Source: a virus (taxonomy: Duplodnaviria; Heunggongvirae; Uroviricota; Caudoviricetes). From it: a stretch of DNA of 64,000 bases. This document shows, piece after piece, positions 15,691 to 56,345 of the stretch; positions within the stretch are counted from its first letter, which is position 1; each line of letters starts with the position of its first letter. The stretch lies in the IMG/VR virus record IMGVR_UViG_651053023_000001, positions 1-64,000 of that record. One strand, 5' to 3'. A model generated the notes under the pieces. That model did not search any database and was not told where the DNA came from. It saw only the letters and a program-made list of their open reading frames with translations. Made by a program: the position numbers and the translations under genes.

Positions 15691-15756
15691 TGGTAATCCT
15701 TAACAAGTGACTAGTGTTAAATTCCGTTAAAACACGATGCGAATTATTCTAATTAA

Positions 15757-19336: not shown

Positions 19337-19469
19337 AAAGACCTCATAAGCGAATTTTTTACGCTCCAGGACAAACACCCATTCACAGCCAATACCGACT
19401 GACTCGATCCCTTTAGAAGGCACAGGATAATGCAAATCACTTGTTAGCTACGTTTCAAAGATATACATT

Positions 19470-20191: not shown

Positions 20192-20986
20192 ATGACAGCA
20201 CAAAATACTAAAACCATTCAATACCGCCTACGTAATGGCCAGAGTGTCGAAGTGACCATCAATAACGAGGGAGTGCCAGGCGAAAAGGTTTCTATCTCTG
20301 ATCTGGCTATCGAAAAAACCATCATGTGCCACCTTGGCTTTACTGAAGAAGTGAGCAAAAAGCATGGTGTAGCTATCTGGCGCACAATGGATACTGGAAT
20401 GCGCAGATTCATTACTGCTCGTACCCCTGGTATGACCATGATGGACCTCATGCAGATTGCGCCGCTGTTTGAGTGTGAACCTCTGGATGTATTCAGTAAT
20501 CCAGTTATCTGCCAGCAGTTATATGGTGAGATGAAACTCGCGGTTACCCCCATCGTGCTGCATGAAGGATCGCTTGCTGGCGTATGGAAAGTAGAGCGAA
20601 TTTCAAGCTACATGCCCTTCCACGTCCATGTCAACGGCGTAATCACAGGTGAAAATCAACCTGTTTCAGTTACAAAGTCAGACCTCAAGCGTGCAATTCT
20701 TGAAGCAAGTTGTCGAGTTATCGGCCTGGGCAAACAGTCTTATGTTTGCTTCCCCGCAGGCCCAGAAGGCCAGGCTGAAATACTGGCGATGGATGCCGAT
20801 CTGCTCTGGCAAATAGAGTTTATGATAGGGAAAAGCATCATCCGAGCTGAAGAACTCGATCAGTACATTACCTGCACAATGACGGATGAGGTAAAAAGTG
20901 TGGCTATAGCCAAAGCCCGGAACCTGTGTCGTGCTGCATTAACAGAACTGCGAGAAAACACCACGGAAGAGGTGGAAAGTGATTAA
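20192..20986 (+). CDS. hypothetical protein
   Basis: 264-aa ORF, overlaps next ORF by 8 nt (operon). Confidence 0.55.
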   Translation: MTAQNTKTIQYRLRNGQSVEVTINNEGVPGEKVSISDLAIEKTIMCHLGFTEEVSKKHGVAIWRTMDTGMRRFITARTPGMTMMDLMQIAPLFECEPLDVFSNPVICQQLYGEMKLAVTPIVLHEGSLAGVWKVERISSYMPFHVHVNGVITGENQPVSVTKSDLKRAILEASCRVIGLGKQSYVCFPAGPEGQAEILAMDADLLWQIEFMIGKSIIRAEELDQYITCTMTDEVKSVAIAKARNLCRAALTELRENTTEEVESD

Positions 20987-22073
20987 TCGTATACAGAATG
21001 AATCTGCCTGGTTAGCACTGATAGAACAGTATAAAGACAATTGGGAACTGGCAGCGAAAGAGTTGCTTGATATTGAGTTAACACCTCATCAAGCAAAAAT
21101 TATTAACGCGATAAAGAACACCGGAGCCAAAGTCACTGCCACCACACCACATGGTATTGGGGAAACCTCTATTGTGGCAGTGATTAGCATCCTGCAAACA
21201 ATACTGTATTCGTGTTCCCGTACAGTGGTTGTTTCTCCTGCTATTAACGATAGTCGAAAAACAATAATTGACTATATGTTCCGTTATTGGGAGCGAGTTA
21301 CCCAAAAACACCCTTTTCTTGGCAATCATTTCAGAATGCACCCTGACAAAGGGTTGGTGCATATCAGTGAAACATGGGGATGCGTCTATATAACCTATTG
21401 TCTGAATAACGAAGTGTCTCTGGCTGGTTTTACTGGACCGCACGATCTTTTCATCGTTATTAACTCGGCGGAAATCAGCGATCGCGCTCATGCAGTGATA
21501 ACTGGCAATTTAACCAATTATGACTCGCGCCTGCTGTTGCTGTCGAAACCATCGGAACGCGAGAAAGGGTACTTTTATGATTCGCATCACCGGTTGGCCC
21601 ATAGTAAAAACAATCCTGCTGGTTTTTTCACGGCGATAACTCTAAACACAGAGGATTCGCCTCTCGTTTCTGAAGCATATCTTGAATTCAAAGCCAAAGA
21701 GTTTGGTGGGCGCAATAGCGATGAATATCGCCGATTGATCTTGGGGAAATTTCCCGGGATTCGGGAGTTGATGGAAAAGTCATCTGTTCCCCGTAATATG
21801 CACTTCACAATGACTGACGGTAGTAAATGGGTAGTGCCTACGATCGTGATCGCCAAACACCATGCGAAACATCACGCTCAAAAACACAACTCCAGCACAT
21901 TAGACTGGCTGAAGGCCTATACAATACCGTTATTCTCGGCAAACCATAACGCTATAGCTGAATGGGCTAAACAAATCCCCTGGCAGGATGTGGCTGAAGA
22001 GGCATTTGTCGAAAAACCTCCGAGAGATTTGCACGAGCACTGTTGGCTGACATCAGAAAAGAGCTTCTCGTGA
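20979..22073 (+). CDS. hypothetical protein with weak resemblance to a degenerate terminase-type ATPase fold
   Basis: 364 aa; segment TPHQAKIINAIKNTGAKVTATTPHGIGETS...LFIVINSAEIS loosely resembles terminase ATPase Walker A/B regions but lacks the canonical lysine. Confidence 0.5.
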   Translation: MINRIQNESAWLALIEQYKDNWELAAKELLDIELTPHQAKIINAIKNTGAKVTATTPHGIGETSIVAVISILQTILYSCSRTVVVSPAINDSRKTIIDYMFRYWERVTQKHPFLGNHFRMHPDKGLVHISETWGCVYITYCLNNEVSLAGFTGPHDLFIVINSAEISDRAHAVITGNLTNYDSRLLLLSKPSEREKGYFYDSHHRLAHSKNNPAGFFTAITLNTEDSPLVSEAYLEFKAKEFGGRNSDEYRRLILGKFPGIRELMEKSSVPRNMHFTMTDGSKWVVPTIVIAKHHAKHHAQKHNSSTLDWLKAYTIPLFSANHNAIAEWAKQIPWQDVAEEAFVEKPPRDLHEHCWLTSEKSFS

Positions 22074-22076
22074 GGT

Positions 22077-22105
22077 AAAAATCCCGCCGATTGGCGGGAT
22101 TTCTT
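22077..22105. terminator. bidirectional terminator (AAAATCCCGCC-gatt-GGCGGGATTTCTTT)
   Basis: Perfect stem flanked by an A-run and a T-run, between convergent transcription units. Confidence 0.6.
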
Positions 22106-22413
22106 TAATATATGATCTGGTCTATATGATCACCAAAATCATCGTCGTCGTCCTCATCGCCACCATCTACTGCTGGCCAATCAACAAACCAGCCAGCGTA
22201 AAGATGCAGCGTTCGGAGAACATCACTTGCGGGAGCATCAAGGGTGTTAACGAATCCCATATAGCTATTGGGATTTGCCCCAGCTATGGCTTCAGCGATC
22301 ATGTCCTCGGTAATGTCACCGGAGATAATGCTTAAACGCCCGGAAACTTCTTCATTATCATCAAATTCGATAATGGCATCTCCGCCTAATGGCGCTGCGA
22401 TTTTAATCTGCAT
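22105..22413 (-). CDS. small highly acidic protein at the 3' end of the dar operon
   Basis: 102 aa with acidic C-terminal tail GGDEDDDDDFGDHIDQIIY; overlaps ddrB stop. Confidence 0.5.
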   Translation of the reverse strand: MQIKIAAPLGGDAIIEFDDNEEVSGRLSIISGDITEDMIAEAIAGANPNSYMGFVNTLDAPASDVLRTLHLYAGWFVDWPAVDGGDEDDDDDFGDHIDQIIY

Positions 22414-25390
22414 TATTTAGCTCCTTTGCCACACCTAATAACAGTTCCAGCAATCCGTCACCATTCATCAGTGATGCGGCAGCGGCCTCTTTGTCATGAT
22501 ACAACTGAAGAGCCATAGAGAATACTTCCGTTGCTGACGTTTTGGAAATAGTCGGGGATTTCTGCCGAATTTTCCCAGTGTTACTTACTGAGGCTGGCGG
22601 GTATACCTTCGCCATATAAATATTACTCAATCGAGATCTGAAGCACCATTCAGGCTTGCCACGCCCACCGATATTAACGAAAGATGGCTTATCCCCTTCA
22701 ACATTGGCCTTCAGGAATGACCGGGCTTTCTCTAACAAACCAGGGTTACTGTACTCAAGATGATGACCCAGCTCGTGCCACAGTGCACTTGCATTTTCAT
22801 CGTTCAAATTGACAGCAACAACACCATTAAGATTTGCATATGCCCTTCCCTTGTGGTGAACCACCTTTGATAAGGTCGAAATTTTACCGCCGGTCAGGCG
22901 ATAAATATCAGCAAGTTCCTTGCGCAGGTCTATCCCACCATTCTGTCCAGCGCGGGCTTCTTCCACTTCTTCCGTGATAAAAGAGTCGGCCCACTCAAGA
23001 GCTTTTTCTTCAGATACGGATGAGTTTGCGATCGCACTGTTCATGGCAGATAACACTTTCTCGTGGACCGAACCCATACTTCGCTGATTCATTTGCCAGC
23101 GTGTCTGCGGGTTGTATGAGAATCGCTTAAGTAGTTGGTCAAGCTGCTCAAGTTCTTCTTCACTGACATACTTTTTAGCCTCACCAATAATGCCAGGGAG
23201 AATATTGCCGTTAGGATTAAACGCTCGCGAAAGGAAGAGTTTCAGCGCCCCCATGCCCTCCGATGCTTCAATATCACCAATAACCCGGTTAACAATGGCC
23301 GCACTCTTCGGATTAGCATCCGCCAACGCCCTGGCTACAATTTGCAGGGACGATACGACCTCACGCTGCATATCAGTCCTGATCTCATCAATAAACTCTG
23401 GCGTTATGCCGTGCTCTTTAAGGATATCCCTGCCTTCCGCCGTTACCCCATCGATATCACCGACATGTTTATTAACCTGACTTTGCAATGCCTTAAATGC
23501 CTTCAGAATTCCACGGGCATCATCAGCTTTACTAACGGCCTTCCTGAATGCTGGCAAGAAGTCTGAGTTAACCTCATTTTGTTGATCGGCCCACTGAATG
23601 GAGGCTTCTTTCATCTCGTCCAGAGTCAGATCACCCAACGCGGTATGGTCTGTGAATATGAGCGACAACCTCTGAACCATTTCTGCCAATGGTGATGCCG
23701 AATGCGCCGCGCTAAGGAATGCTTTCACCCTGGTTGGGCGAATGGAAAACCAGTCAATAGCTGGTGGCATATCTCCGTTTTTTATCGCCTGCGCTATCTC
23801 GTCAAAGCCATCGCGCCCAAGGGAGGATGCGTGATTTAACAAGCCGCGAAGTAACGAATTGCTGATACCGAATAATCGGCACCATTTTTTCACGTCGGCA
23901 ACAGGCATTCGAACAAAATGCGCAAGCACTTGTACAAGCTGTTCATCCTGGGGATCTGTGCGGGAAAGCAGCCTGATCAGATGAATAATGTCTTTGATGC
24001 CGGATGCCCGATGTAATAGCAAACTGGTATACGGAGCAACACCGTTGTAACTACCGCCGGAAACGGACTCGAAAAGACCGCCGGATATCCCTTGCATGCC
24101 TTCGTATTCCAGTTCCTGAGACACCTGGCGAAGGATATCCTGTAACGACACATCGCCGCCGCCAAACATATCCCCGAGCGCCTGGCCCTGGTGCTGTAAC
24201 TCATCATTGATACGTTGCGCCATCAACTTAAAGGCGGTGGCCATACGCTTCGCGCTACGGTTATTCGCGACGATGAACAACGCGAGTGCTTTCACTTCCG
24301 GGGCCGTTTCGCTGAACATATCCCCCTGAGCAATAACATCGGTAATATGCTGGCCTGACTCCTTCGATTGCCTTACCAGGTCTACCGCATCTTTCAATGC
24401 CGCCAGCGCCTTTTTATCGAGGCTATCCGCTGTCTCAATGCCATCAACAATAGTTGTCACAGCCTGCTTGTGCGCTTCTCCTGATAAAGCCTGCATCTGG
24501 ACAAAATCATTGGCTGCCGCATTAAGCGCCGTCAGAACATTACGCATATCCGGATCAGGTTCTTCTGCAACCATCCTTACCAGGCGCGCATCCTTATATG
24601 CCTTGGCAAAGATCGCGTTTTGTATACGGTCAACAAGTTGCCGTGTTGGTCGCCCATCTTCAGTTACAAGGCCAGCCGCCTGTGTGGCACCAACTTGCGT
24701 CATGAATCCGCGAATAAACGCGTCATTACTGCGGCTAAGCAGATCTCCGCTTTCTGACGGGTTAAACAACGCCATCATCGCCGGTGTTATGCTGTCGGCA
24801 TCAACAAAAGCCTTTTCACTGGCTGCCATTTCCTGGAGATCAGAAATATTTGAGTCCTTGGCAAACTGAACACGGTCAACCTTCGTTAACCGGCGGCGCA
24901 CCAGTACCGGAGCCGTCATTGATTCAACCTTTTCAGGCCGTATGCCGAATTCGGTCGCATGTTCAATCAGGTACTCCCGATACCGATCCGCATTACCGTC
25001 CTGATAGGCTTTGATGATCCCCATGGTCCGTCCATTACCTGACTCAACGGCATTGTCCTCACCAATTATCGGCGCGCCATGGCTGGATAAACCGGAATCA
25101 GTAAGCTGAGCAGGCCGCAAATCTTTGGATATCTGGTTAACCTGAAGAAGGCTGGATGCGCGGGTCCGGTCGCGCGGCTGAAGTTCCTGGGGATAGTCAG
25201 GATTAATTTTCCCATCCAGAGTATTGGATACCAAAAGAGCTGAGGCATCGACGATATCAAACGCTGTTTTTACCTCGTCTCCCTTCGCTGTCACCACATA
25301 CGAAACCCGCCCATAATCGGGCAGGTTCTTTAGCAGCTCGATCAGCGTTTCTATGCTGGTGGCCATTACCACCTGATCGCTTAAGCTCAT
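22403..25390 (-). CDS. ddrB: DdrB-like large Dar-system protein
   Basis: 995-aa ORF downstream of darA/ddrA in the same operon; assignment by size and synteny. Confidence 0.6.
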   Translation of the reverse strand: MSLSDQVVMATSIETLIELLKNLPDYGRVSYVVTAKGDEVKTAFDIVDASALLVSNTLDGKINPDYPQELQPRDRTRASSLLQVNQISKDLRPAQLTDSGLSSHGAPIIGEDNAVESGNGRTMGIIKAYQDGNADRYREYLIEHATEFGIRPEKVESMTAPVLVRRRLTKVDRVQFAKDSNISDLQEMAASEKAFVDADSITPAMMALFNPSESGDLLSRSNDAFIRGFMTQVGATQAAGLVTEDGRPTRQLVDRIQNAIFAKAYKDARLVRMVAEEPDPDMRNVLTALNAAANDFVQMQALSGEAHKQAVTTIVDGIETADSLDKKALAALKDAVDLVRQSKESGQHITDVIAQGDMFSETAPEVKALALFIVANNRSAKRMATAFKLMAQRINDELQHQGQALGDMFGGGDVSLQDILRQVSQELEYEGMQGISGGLFESVSGGSYNGVAPYTSLLLHRASGIKDIIHLIRLLSRTDPQDEQLVQVLAHFVRMPVADVKKWCRLFGISNSLLRGLLNHASSLGRDGFDEIAQAIKNGDMPPAIDWFSIRPTRVKAFLSAAHSASPLAEMVQRLSLIFTDHTALGDLTLDEMKEASIQWADQQNEVNSDFLPAFRKAVSKADDARGILKAFKALQSQVNKHVGDIDGVTAEGRDILKEHGITPEFIDEIRTDMQREVVSSLQIVARALADANPKSAAIVNRVIGDIEASEGMGALKLFLSRAFNPNGNILPGIIGEAKKYVSEEELEQLDQLLKRFSYNPQTRWQMNQRSMGSVHEKVLSAMNSAIANSSVSEEKALEWADSFITEEVEEARAGQNGGIDLRKELADIYRLTGGKISTLSKVVHHKGRAYANLNGVVAVNLNDENASALWHELGHHLEYSNPGLLEKARSFLKANVEGDKPSFVNIGGRGKPEWCFRSRLSNIYMAKVYPPASVSNTGKIRQKSPTISKTSATEVFSMALQLYHDKEAAAASLMNGDGLLELLLGVAKELNNAD

Positions 25391-25402: not shown

Positions 25403-25768
25403 TTATGCTGCCTCTTTAATGTTGGCGGCTATCCATGCCGCCGTGTGCTGTTTAACCTGGTCCAGGTCGATGTATGTGCCAACATATTGACTCAAGTCCT
25501 GCAAGGTACCGATAAATGCATCTGTGCTCTGATCGACGAATTTATCAGCCAGGAAATCAGCAACCAGTTTTGGCACACCATCATGTTCCGAAGGTTGTTT
25601 TTCATCGCCACTACCACCGCCGGACGCGCCGTACCCCATCTGTTGCATGATCTGGTCAATTTCATCGCTGATATCCAGCAACTCCATGCCACTCGCGGTG
25701 GCCGCTTTGGACATCAGAGCATCCAACTTATCGCTGAGATCCATTAACTCAATAGCTGATAGTGTCAT
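25403..25768 (-). CDS. ddrA: DdrA-like protein
   Basis: 121-aa acidic ORF between darA and ddrB. Confidence 0.55.
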   Translation of the reverse strand: MTLSAIELMDLSDKLDALMSKAATASGMELLDISDEIDQIMQQMGYGASGGGSGDEKQPSEHDGVPKLVADFLADKFVDQSTDAFIGTLQDLSQYVGTYIDLDQVKQHTAAWIAANIKEAA

Positions 25769-29044: not shown

Positions 29045-29111
29045 AAGTTCCCTCCTACGTTGTCAGGAGGTAATGGTATGCAAAGTAACTTCTCAACCGG
29101 TCATTTGTTGC

Positions 29112-36632: not shown

Positions 36633-36710
36633 GATTTTCCCTAATCAATGTTGTGAAGCCTCATTGTAAGAGAAGTAACTTGTCACCCCGCCCTGCGGAC
36701 GGGGTGATTG

Positions 36711-46339: not shown

Positions 46340-46620
46340 CCCAGAAAAACAAAAACCGGCGAGAAGTTACCACGAGAACGGAAAGTAAACAAGAATACTC
46401 CCATTGACTTATATCAATTAATCAACTTTTTATAAGCTATCCCTAACTTATTGTGTATAGCTGAAAAGTCAGAGACAAGTTCACCATCTGCATTATTTCT
46501 TAAGTTAATAGTTTATTGCTAACTTAATTTATGCATCGACTATTGATATCCATCTTAAAGTTACAATATCCCTCTGCATTATTTTTCATCACAAATAATA
46601 TATCTATTGCACGACACTAA

Positions 46621-54415: not shown

Positions 54416-56122
54416 TTACTCAGAGTCACCGGCATCAATCGTGTCGCCGCTAATGAAGTTAAGCCCGCCTTTTTTGGCCATTGTCAGCGTTACACGAGTG
54501 AAGTAATCAGCGCCGTTGCGTGGGTGCATATCGTTGATAGCCGAACCCCACAGTGTGGTACGGTTGACCAGCGCCGGAGTGGTCGGATGCTGGAACGGGA
54601 TAGCCGGGACAGCATCACCAGTCACGAAGCCTGCTTTACCCGGATTTTCATCACGGACGTAGCACAGCACATCCATCGAGCTGAACTGAATGTTCTCTGT
54701 CGTTAAGTTCTTACAAATACCAGCAGGTACTTCGTACACTTTCACGTTACCGAACAGGGTACCGATGTAGTGAACATACGGAGTCTGGATATAGTCTTCG
54801 GCTGGCTGGAAGAAATCCTTCGGCAACTGTTTGAAGAAAGATGCTGCATCAGCACCAGCAAACATCCCCATCGCACCAGAAGATTTAACGCGCTCAATAA
54901 TGTCGCGATATACAGTCTGGAATTTGCCACGAATGATGGTTGCCCATACACCAAAGGACTGGTTAACCGGCAGAGCGATGTCAAAGGTGTCGGTCGCAAG
55001 AGTACGCCAGATCATGATGCGAAGACGCAGCATATCCTGTTCATGAGACAGGTATTCCTTCAGGGTGCGGAACTGTAGGGAACCCAGGTCCAGACCAAAT
55101 TCACGCTGTGCTTCATACGCTGCCTGTACCGTGTGCTCAGCCGCGATAACGAACTGACTTGGGAACAGGGTGTATTTCTTCATTTCGTGGTTGATCAGCG
55201 GGATCAGCTCAGGAGCGGCTTCAATATTGATTTCCGTCTCAATTGCGATCTCAGTGCCTTTATCCGGCGCTTTGGAGAACGACAGGGCAATCTGACCAAT
55301 GTTGTAGTTCAGAGAGCAGGTAACAGTGATTTGCTCACCAGCAGCATTAGTAAACGAGTGAAGTAGGCTGCCGGAACCGTTATCAACAACAGACTTAATA
55401 CGGTTAACGTAGATGTTAGTGCGACCTTTTCGGATTGGTACATTCTGGCCTTCGAAGTCTTCCATCTTGAAGGTTGCGGTTTTGCTAGTGCCATCGGAGC
55501 TTGCCACCAGCACATAGCGGCGACGTAACTGGCTGTACACACCGACGGATTGCATGTCCAGAACATCACCAGCAGCATAAGAACCAAAAGAGGAACCTGC
55601 CACGTTAAAGACTTCATAGATGTCGGACTGGTCACGCGTAACCGGAATGAAGGTACACGCATCAGCGGTAGCTGCCCCCAACTGAACAGGCAGGATCATC
55701 GCGAGGAATAAAGGCAGACGCATAACACCGTCAGAAACGCTCATCATCTCTGCTGCGACGGATTCCAGCATCGCTTTATTAGTGGCATCCATGCTATTGC
55801 GGGTGGACTCTATCAGGCAGTTTTCCAGCGTCTGGTGGCAGGAGGCCAGAATTTCCGGACGCGGCATAGATTTATGTGCTGCGGCGTAGTCAGCCAGTGC
55901 ACTTGCCCACGCTGTAGCGATTTGAGCGGTGGCATTATCAGAGATACCCGCAAAAACCGGGTCTTTACGTGCAGCTTCAAGGATAGATGCGGCACGCGCG
56001 GCATCATCTTTAATGAATTGGTTATCAGTACCGAACTGCGCAGTGCTTGCCCAGCCAAGCACAGCTTTAGAGCGTTTTGCGATATCTGCAATACGATTCT
56101 GGTATTCGCGTAAGTTACTCAA
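54416..56122 (-). CDS. putative major head (capsid) protein
   Basis: Start placed at TTG 56122 with AAGGAAGAG upstream (track ORF starts 56143); adjacent to parS as P1 gene 23 is. Confidence 0.5.
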   Translation of the reverse strand: MSNLREYQNRIADIAKRSKAVLGWASTAQFGTDNQFIKDDAARAASILEAARKDPVFAGISDNATAQIATAWASALADYAAAHKSMPRPEILASCHQTLENCLIESTRNSMDATNKAMLESVAAEMMSVSDGVMRLPLFLAMILPVQLGAATADACTFIPVTRDQSDIYEVFNVAGSSFGSYAAGDVLDMQSVGVYSQLRRRYVLVASSDGTSKTATFKMEDFEGQNVPIRKGRTNIYVNRIKSVVDNGSGSLLHSFTNAAGEQITVTCSLNYNIGQIALSFSKAPDKGTEIAIETEINIEAAPELIPLINHEMKKYTLFPSQFVIAAEHTVQAAYEAQREFGLDLGSLQFRTLKEYLSHEQDMLRLRIMIWRTLATDTFDIALPVNQSFGVWATIIRGKFQTVYRDIIERVKSSGAMGMFAGADAASFFKQLPKDFFQPAEDYIQTPYVHYIGTLFGNVKVYEVPAGICKNLTTENIQFSSMDVLCYVRDENPGKAGFVTGDAVPAIPFQHPTTPALVNRTTLWGSAINDMHPRNGADYFTRVTLTMAKKGGLNFISGDTIDAGDSE

Positions 56123-56254
56123 TTTACTCTTCCTTAAACACAAGGCACTTGTGTGAATCCCTTTTCGGAAGAGATTTTATTGAAAGTCACTTGTTGACTT
56201 TCTCGTGACAAGCAAATTTTTATTTTTTTCGGGAGGAGGGGAGGAAGGTAAAAT

Positions 56255-56345
56255 CCAAGGTGAAATCGTGGCGATTTCACCTTGAAATTTTAGAGCAATT
56301 TACTTTAAAAACAGTCAGTTAATAGTGAAATTTGAATGGCGAAAG
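56255..56345. other. parS: parS partition site
   Basis: Immediately downstream of parB; inverted ATTTCAC heptamers flanking a TCGCCA-type hexamer (GTGAAATCGTGGCGATTTCAC) plus an AT-rich putative IHF region. Confidence 0.65.

Follow-up and report, generated by a model that had tools for sequence, protein, structure and literature searches.

The anti-restriction proteins Ocr (T7 gp0.3) and ArdA are DNA mimics: they form rigid, elongated dimers that display the charges, and they are the first proteins to be expressed on entry. Acidic tails occur in SSB, T7 gp2.5 and T4 gp32; they mimic nucleic acid and dock on partner proteins, and the tip of the SSB tail recruits the partners. A further arrangement is the operon encoding a zincin protease and its small cognate inhibitor (protealysin-emfourin and serralysin-Inh/AprI). 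For the Dar system of phage P1, a 2026 paper on the structures of DarA and Hdf recognizes six components, and Hxr is not among them (PMC12810830). One of the Dar proteins, DdrB, is reportedly processed before it is packaged, to a form of approx. 76 kDa. Iyer et al. predicted that the zincin-like peptidase doing that processing is the C-terminal domain of DdrB itself (PMC5512222). In full-text literature searches, hxr was found in gene tables only, and no published mutant phenotype was found beyond a CRISPRi screen of P1, in which hxr was scored as non-essential, i.e., dispensable for plaque formation (PMC10695390). This result says nothing for or against a function in the Dar system.

In this study, we analyzed a window of 64,000 nucleotides (IMG/VR virus record IMGVR_UViG_651053023_000001, positions 1–64,000), focusing on a small gene located directly downstream of ddrB. 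The features of this region and of the related loci are listed in Table 1.

The hxr gene and its late operon

The gene is an ATG-to-TAA open reading frame (ORF) on the minus strand of the window, with a product of 102 aa. It corresponds to hxr of P1 (P1_gp021, YP_006490; NC_005856) and odaA of P7, and shows a full-length profile match (aa 1–102; E 6.6e-59) to phrog_2292 of the PHROG database (function unknown). The whole region shares 98–99.6% nucleotide sequence identity with P1-like phages. The window copy and P1 Hxr/P7 OdaA are the same gene, with cores 97.6–100% identical and the same place after ddrB. They differ in the tail alone, i.e., in how many Asp residues it contains and in whether Ile or Val stands close to the tip (the window Hxr ends with HIDQIIY, and most relatives with HVDQIVY). 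The existence of hxr is not new, since the gene has been annotated since 2004. In NC_005856 it is described as a "possible repressor; homolog of Xre", on the basis of 28% identity over approx. 58 residues. The P1 and P7 records use different nomenclature: in the latter (AF503408.1, locus L104) the ddrB homologue is "prt, putative protease" and the hxr homologue is "odaA".

A small, highly acidic product with a low pI had been predicted from the sequence alone, and this description is accurate: Hxr contains 17 Asp and 6 Glu residues (22.5% of the protein) versus 1 Lys and 2 Arg, which corresponds to a net charge of approx. -20 (pH 7) and a calculated pI of 4.05. Hxr and DdrA have the lowest pI among the products of the 101 window ORFs that are 80 aa or longer. 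The same sequence-only reading placed a run of Asp/Glu at the very end of the protein; the run exists (D86-E-D-D-D-D-D92), but it is not terminal, as ten residues (FGDHIDQIIY) lie beyond it.

The position of the gene was also read correctly: hxr closes the late operon lydA-lydB-hdf-darA-ddrA-ddrB as its final cistron, and a G+C-rich terminator hairpin begins 3 nt past its stop codon. Most divergent lineages carry a different, lineage-specific G+C-rich hairpin with a T-run after hxr. A late-promoter consensus (AAGTNANT-N5-TANNNT), built from three annotated P1 late promoters, has eight matches in the window; LPpro, LPlyz and LPdar, all of them annotated, account for three. The scan revealed no second late promoter on the same strand between LPdar and hxr, and no match for an early promoter or for a promoter of hxr itself, which is an inference from sequence and not a measurement of expression. 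Since LPdar is the sole late promoter and a terminator follows hxr, Hxr is expected to be made at the time of head assembly. Its location within the dar operon, under a late promoter, is that of a Dar component.

P1-like genomes cease to be homologous precisely at the hxr stop codon. In the place where P1 has isaA-IS1-isaB, the window carries two ORFs of 264 aa (phrog_2326) and 364 aa (phrog_5902), the latter with a weak terminase-large-subunit-like match. Both are directed towards hxr, with which they have the hairpin terminator in common, and they are carried by only three phage records. Other elements found at this site include a porin gene (nmpC/ompD) and RelE/MqsA or HigB genes. The site beyond the hxr stop codon looks like a cargo hot spot.

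Table 1. Positions of hxr, its neighbouring features and the related loci.
Feature	Sequence	Position	Strand	Remarks
hxr CDS (102 aa + TAA)	window	22105..22413	-	P1 hxr / P7 odaA, phrog_2292
Predicted folded core of Hxr, aa 1–83	window	22165..22413	-	strand-strand-strand-helix-helix-strand; AF2 model, alignments
Predicted disordered acidic tail of Hxr, aa 84–102 (GGDEDDDDDFGDHIDQIIY)	window	22108..22164	-	net charge approx. -9/-10, hydrophobic tip; pLDDT <50
Asp/Glu run, aa 86–92	window	22138..22158	-	GAT/GAC repeats, length-polymorphic: 4–9 Asp among 80 close relatives, always in frame
hxr start/ddrB stop overlap, 11 nt (translational coupling)	window	22403..22413	-	same TAA offset in 78/78 close loci
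hxr Shine-Dalgarno sequence AAGGAG	window	22421..22426	-	within last ddrB codons, 7 nt before ATG; AAGGAG/CAGGAG in divergent lineages
Hairpin with T-runs on both strands, intrinsic terminator	window	22079..22102	.	shared with convergent gene 20979–22073
Two convergent ORFs (264 aa and 364 aa)	window	20192..22073	+	
ddrB, 995 aa	window	22403..25390	-	N-terminal DdrB-ParB domain aa 36–167, hypervariable middle, C-terminal zincin-like peptidase domain
C-terminal zincin (MPTase) domain of DdrB, approx. aa 731–992	window	22415..23200	-	proposed Hxr partner
HELGH zinc-binding motif of DdrB, aa 872–876	window	22763..22777	-	
ddrA, 121 aa	window	25403..25768		
Late promoter LPdar (AAGTTACTTTGCATACCAT)	window	29073..29091	-	identical to annotated LPdar of NC_005856
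Other late-promoter consensus matches	window	15705..15723; 56112..56130	+	
Other late-promoter consensus matches	window	19424..19442; 36663..36681; 46392..46410; 56174..56192; 56287..56305	-	
Tandem Hxr, protein P0015 (184 aa)	L004	8001..8555		metagenomic P1-like contig
hxr with IS1 terminal repeat	L084	6001..6324		107-aa variant
Vibrio Ackermannviridae loci	L105	1106..5004		
	L106	2357..4830		
	L107	2285..4962		
	L108	2522..4814		
	L109	2666..4839		
	L110	1..2504		
Small ORFs after DdrB-like proteins (IMG/VR)	L113	3106..3408		
	L115	3169..3471		
	L118	2965..3276		
	L114	3475..3807		
	L150	3586..3879		

Conservation and predicted architecture of Hxr

The hxr gene is a genuine gene and not a chance reading frame, because the pN/pS ratio of its core is approx. 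0.14, its length changes are in frame only and its homologues extend down to 28% identity. The ratio was obtained for codons 1–83, with 14 synonymous and 7 non-synonymous variants among 79 close relatives. The gene is intact in all 80 closely related IMG/VR loci, and L084 alone is altered, in its last four codons, where an IS1 terminal repeat creates a variant ending ...DQGDAANLLI. Nearly all protein variation among the close relatives is located in the tail, in the form of in-frame changes of the Asp run and conservative changes close to the tip. The variation of this run between near-identical phages (loci L007-L086) arises via in-frame changes of the GAC/GAT repeats.

In exhaustive and profile searches, the family was seen only in P1-like phage-plasmids of Enterobacterales, whose hosts belong to the genera Escherichia, Salmonella, Klebsiella, Citrobacter, Cronobacter, Enterobacter, Leclercia and Rosenbergiella. 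Identity within the family drops to approx. 28–30%. Its members are present in 504 plasmid records, mostly as a "hypothetical protein", and as a "putative repressor protein" in at least one (LC257591).

The AF2 model, based on 24 sequences, has pLDDT values of approx. 81–89 across most of the core and 67 in the loop of aa 21–30. The invariant residues of the core are G53, V65-L66-R67, W75 and W79-P80, while P8, G32, V55 and N56 are nearly invariant. No structural relative of the core was found in fold searches. In every lineage the tail has an acidic composition (net charge -6 to -14) without conservation of its sequence, and the protein ends with conserved residues: (I/V)(I/V)N in most lineages, IIY or IVY for the P1 group, and IH for another. 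A predicted, previously unrecognised fold combined with an acidic, apparently tip-anchored tail is a new, although modest, element of the description of this protein.

A natural tandem duplication of Hxr (P0015) was observed after a 997-aa DdrB. Its model shows the same fold in both halves, with pLDDT values of 86–97 in the second copy, and the full acidic tail is kept in the second half only.

Two apparent relationships were rejected. Large FG-GAP/VCBS repeat proteins (P0020 and P0026-P0028) gave many phmmer matches to aa 23–49 of Hxr, in which SGDITEDMIAEAIAGANP is aligned with GDVTGDGVAEIVTGAGPGG; the resemblance is compositional and does not reflect homology. DdrA was rejected as a paralogue of Hxr (hhalign probability 0.1%).

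Linkage of hxr to the peptidase domain of DdrB

Of all signals from the genomic context, the link to ddrB is the strongest. The start of hxr lies inside the last ddrB codons in 78 of the 78 close loci and in every divergent lineage examined (28–46% core identity). The hxr start precedes the ddrB stop codon by 11 or 14 nt in Rosenbergiella (core identity of 28%), Klebsiella, Citrobacter and eight more lineages; counted as overlaps, the values are 11 or 14 nt in 10 divergent lineages, and 1 or 4 nt in the two most distant ones. The pair is also maintained in an element of Klebsiella variicola (L005), in which GerE and SSB genes part ddrB from darA/ddrA and hxr is still joined to ddrB.

Between lineages, DdrB is a mosaic, with identities of 58–91% for aa 121–440, 15–38% for aa 441–800 and 41–49% for aa 801–995. 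In comparison with L088/L089, the identity is 90–92% for aa 1–440 of DdrB, 47–49% for aa 801–995 and 46% for the Hxr core. The Hxr core (28–46% identical) thus diverges like the peptidase domain of DdrB, and not like its ParB-like N-terminus. As a separate observation, the segment of aa 441–800 is hypervariable (15–38%) where the N-terminal 440 residues are 58–92% identical, with an apparent recombination break near aa 440.

Across the DdrB lineages examined, Hxr appears, from gene order and sequence divergence, to be an obligate companion of the DdrB peptidase domain, which is a new, although modest, finding. As with the operons of zincins and their small inhibitors, Hxr is encoded directly after a zincin-type peptidase domain and co-transcribed with it: the gene overlaps the stop codon of the HELGH-containing DdrB. 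The charge complementarity of the two proteins is weak, because DdrB has only a mildly basic C-terminal domain (pI of 9 for aa 840–995). A mimicry by the Hxr tip of the C-terminus newly created when DdrB is processed was considered and rejected, since the tripeptide IVN of the window DdrB (aa 699–701) is not conserved in other lineages.

Distant proteins with a DdrB-type peptidase domain were also identified. A tblastn search with aa 760–995 of DdrB revealed 69 Vibrio phages of the Ackermannviridae (25–33% identity). In local BLASTP comparisons, the peptidase domain was the sole part common to DdrB and its relatives from Vibrio phages and metagenomes (E 1e-14 to 3e-9), and the motifs RAY...WHExGHxIE...TEVxSMxLQ align between DdrB and the Vibrio proteins. 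In all five Vibrio lineages inspected, a large protein (632–1207 aa) ends with the DdrB-type domain and is followed by an ORF of 87–130 aa, which either overlaps the large gene by 4 nt or starts 1–2 nt past its stop codon.

Further lineages were recovered by an IMG/VR scan with the DdrB peptidase domain: (i) L113/L115/L116 and L118/L119 encode DdrB orthologues with both the ParB-like and the peptidase domain, followed by ORFs of 100–103 aa with acidic tails ending in EIN or IVN; (ii) L114 and L150 have only the peptidase domain in common with DdrB and carry a coupled ORF of 97–110 aa, which in L114 ends in a poly-Glu tail; and (iii) L117, a peptidase relative, is without a coupled small ORF. 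The small proteins of the first group, whose genes keep the order and overlap with ddrB, are relatives of Hxr found only through synteny (E 3e-10 for L118 and 5e-5 for L113/L115/L116; neither score was reached by any of 1000 shuffles). Beside peptidase-only proteins, a coupled small ORF is present in 7 of the 8 lineages (five of Vibrio, L114 and L150). The products of these ORFs show no significant sequence similarity to Hxr in hhalign and profile searches with shuffled controls, and most of them are not acidic.

Several single matches were considered in this context. A match of BX-1 to Hxr, whose score was reached by 7 of 2000 and 5 of 1000 shuffles, was not counted, because the alignment is out of register with the fold. 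Protein gp181 of VAP7, one of the small ORF products beside peptidase-only proteins, stands at rank 31 in the list of the 50 BFVD structures closest to the Hxr model, with TM scores of 0.37/0.40 (82 columns), which places it in the twilight zone; its annotation as "tetraspanin-15" is almost certainly an error. The BFVD match of rank 5, a 130-aa protein of Vibrio phage YC, is not assignable to the ORF beside the peptidase gene, since this phage has at least two proteins of 130 aa. Phage YC also carries a "DarB-like antirestriction" gene.

Possible roles of Hxr

We tentatively favor a reading that we rate as possible, somewhat short of probable: Hxr would be a dedicated accessory subunit of DdrB within the P1 Dar module, acting late in the processing or packaging of the cargo. 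We infer a physical binding of Hxr to DdrB, a role of the tail, a direction of regulation and a chaperone or latency function, which could be combined as follows. Hxr would be made late, from the mRNA of DdrB and with translation coupled to it, and its alpha/beta core would dock on the C-terminal zincin peptidase part of DdrB, for which peptidase activity is predicted. The polyanionic tail, anchored by its hydrophobic tip, would form a tethered electrostatic plug, a surrogate for substrate or nucleic acid on a basic or active-site surface. This plug may keep DdrB, or the Dar cargo complex, inactive and off DNA until DdrB has been processed and the procapsid loaded.

The invariant gene order and overlap, the preservation of the pair in L005, the co-divergence of the two proteins and the small ORFs beside peptidase relatives all point to a partner role, and so do the expected timing of Hxr synthesis, its predicted architecture of core, tail and tip, and the reported processing of DdrB. 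The adjacency and co-divergence of hxr and ddrB might in part be explained by physical linkage alone. Hxr is missing from the published list of P1 virion proteins obtained by LC-MS/MS, in which trypsin was used and at least two unique peptides were required (PMC9024508). Because it contains only three Lys/Arg residues, yielding tryptic peptides of 4, 22, 41 and 35 residues, Hxr would have been missed with the two-peptide cutoff; that it was invisible to the proteomics done so far is a new, modest point. Absence from this list is also what would be expected for a factor staying outside the head. DdrA, encoded in the same operon, is similarly small and acidic (121 aa, pI 4.05), but it has no detectable homology to Hxr and, unlike Hxr, was detected in virions as a packaged Dar component. 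Late-only expression, translation coupled to DdrB and absence from the virion list, taken together, lead away from an Ocr-like protein and towards a DdrB helper.

It is unlikely, in our view, that Hxr acts on its own as a DNA mimic with an anti-restriction or anti-defence role, binding and blocking restriction enzymes of type I or other defence proteins that bind DNA. Hxr shares with Ocr and ArdA the small size, the very high negative charge and the anti-restriction context, and has the high Asp/Glu density and low pI of the class; its net charge of approx. -20 over 102 aa lies within the range of DNA mimics. The other products of the antirestriction operon are injected internal head proteins, which are also acidic (pI 4.05 for DdrA and 4.7 for DarA), the virion proteome would have overlooked Hxr, and the tandem duplication P0015 hints at a dimer function. 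Since the gene is expressed late, a decoy of this kind would have to enter the cell by injection, after packaging along with the Dar proteins. Against this, approximately half of the charge resides in a tail of variable length that is predicted to be disordered (pLDDT <50), and the charge of the core is not conserved (-3 to -10 between lineages). The scan found no early or own promoter, and strict coupling to ddrB would be needless for an independent decoy.

As regards the Ocr/ArdA likeness proposed from the sequence alone, nothing beyond charge was found to sustain it: neither in sequence nor in fold was Hxr seen to be related to Ocr, ArdA or another DNA mimic of solved structure. No Pfam family was matched, and a profile search of all PDB sequences returned only noise (E >1). 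Hxr gives no ArdA profile match, and its model has neither the three-domain elongated fold of ArdA nor the rigid, elongated helical fold of Ocr with its DNA-like rows of charge. Expression immediately on DNA entry, as for Ocr, would not be expected of the last cistron of a late operon. Because DNA mimics have no common fold, these negative results lower the probability that Hxr is an Ocr or ArdA, but not that it may act as a polyanionic decoy.

Quite improbable is a role of Hxr outside Dar, as a late effector with a host protein as its target; its acidic tail and tip would dock in a pocket of the partner. The conserved tip ((I/V)(I/V)N, IIY or IH), located after an acidic, sequence-variable tail, would suit such a function, and a disordered polyacidic tail with a conserved hydrophobic tip is common to Hxr and to SSB, T7 gp2.5 and T4 gp32. 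The analogy would be functional, as Hxr is without an OB fold and its tip, (I/V)(I/V)N or IIY, is unlike the DDDIPF motif of SSB with its terminal DIPF. Moreover, the tip varies between lineages infecting similar Enterobacterales hosts, and the invariant overlap with ddrB is left unexplained.

The Xre repressor label is effectively refuted, and a helix-turn-helix repressor is very improbable. This label goes back only to the GenBank note of 2004 quoted above, copied into many records. The profiles HTH_3, HTH_19 and HTH_31 were matched by none of the 24 family members, even at E values up to 1, no HTH proteins occur among the fold matches of Hxr, and its predicted architecture contrasts with the all-helical (five-helix) Xre/Cro domain. 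A net charge of -20 is incompatible with conventional operator DNA binding, and the P7 record gives the same gene as "unknown protein function"; Hxr has size alone in common with Xre-family repressors. Finally, a non-functional or chance ORF at the end of the operon, to which one might be led by its dispensability for plaque formation, is virtually inconceivable and already contradicted by the conservation data, i.e., the low pN/pS of the core, in-frame indels, 80/80 intact loci, a strong Shine-Dalgarno sequence and homologues down to 28% identity that retain W75, W79-P80 and V65-L66-R67.

The reading of Hxr as a DdrB subunit can be extended to a wider cassette of a peptidase and a small ORF, which is a lead and not a result. 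In such a cassette, a polyvalent injected protein ending in a peptidase would be accompanied by a tightly coupled small alpha/beta protein, and the partner in the P1 lineage would have gained a polyanionic tail; this tail could also make Hxr an overlooked seventh, co-injected Dar component. We consider it doubtful that Hxr-like proteins are cognate latency or chaperone subunits of DdrB-type zincin domains in a cassette spanning P1-like phage-plasmids and Vibrio Ackermannviridae.

P1 Dar is the classic system of antirestriction by injected head proteins. The last gene of its operon has been ignored because of the misleading "Xre repressor" label, which was carried over into the records of phages and of at least one plasmid. 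If Hxr is neither a decoy nor a partner, it would be one further small accessory phage protein. If it is a DNA decoy, it would bring a new fold to the class of DNA mimics, and if it is the partner of a peptidase, it would show how polyvalent injected proteins stay latent.
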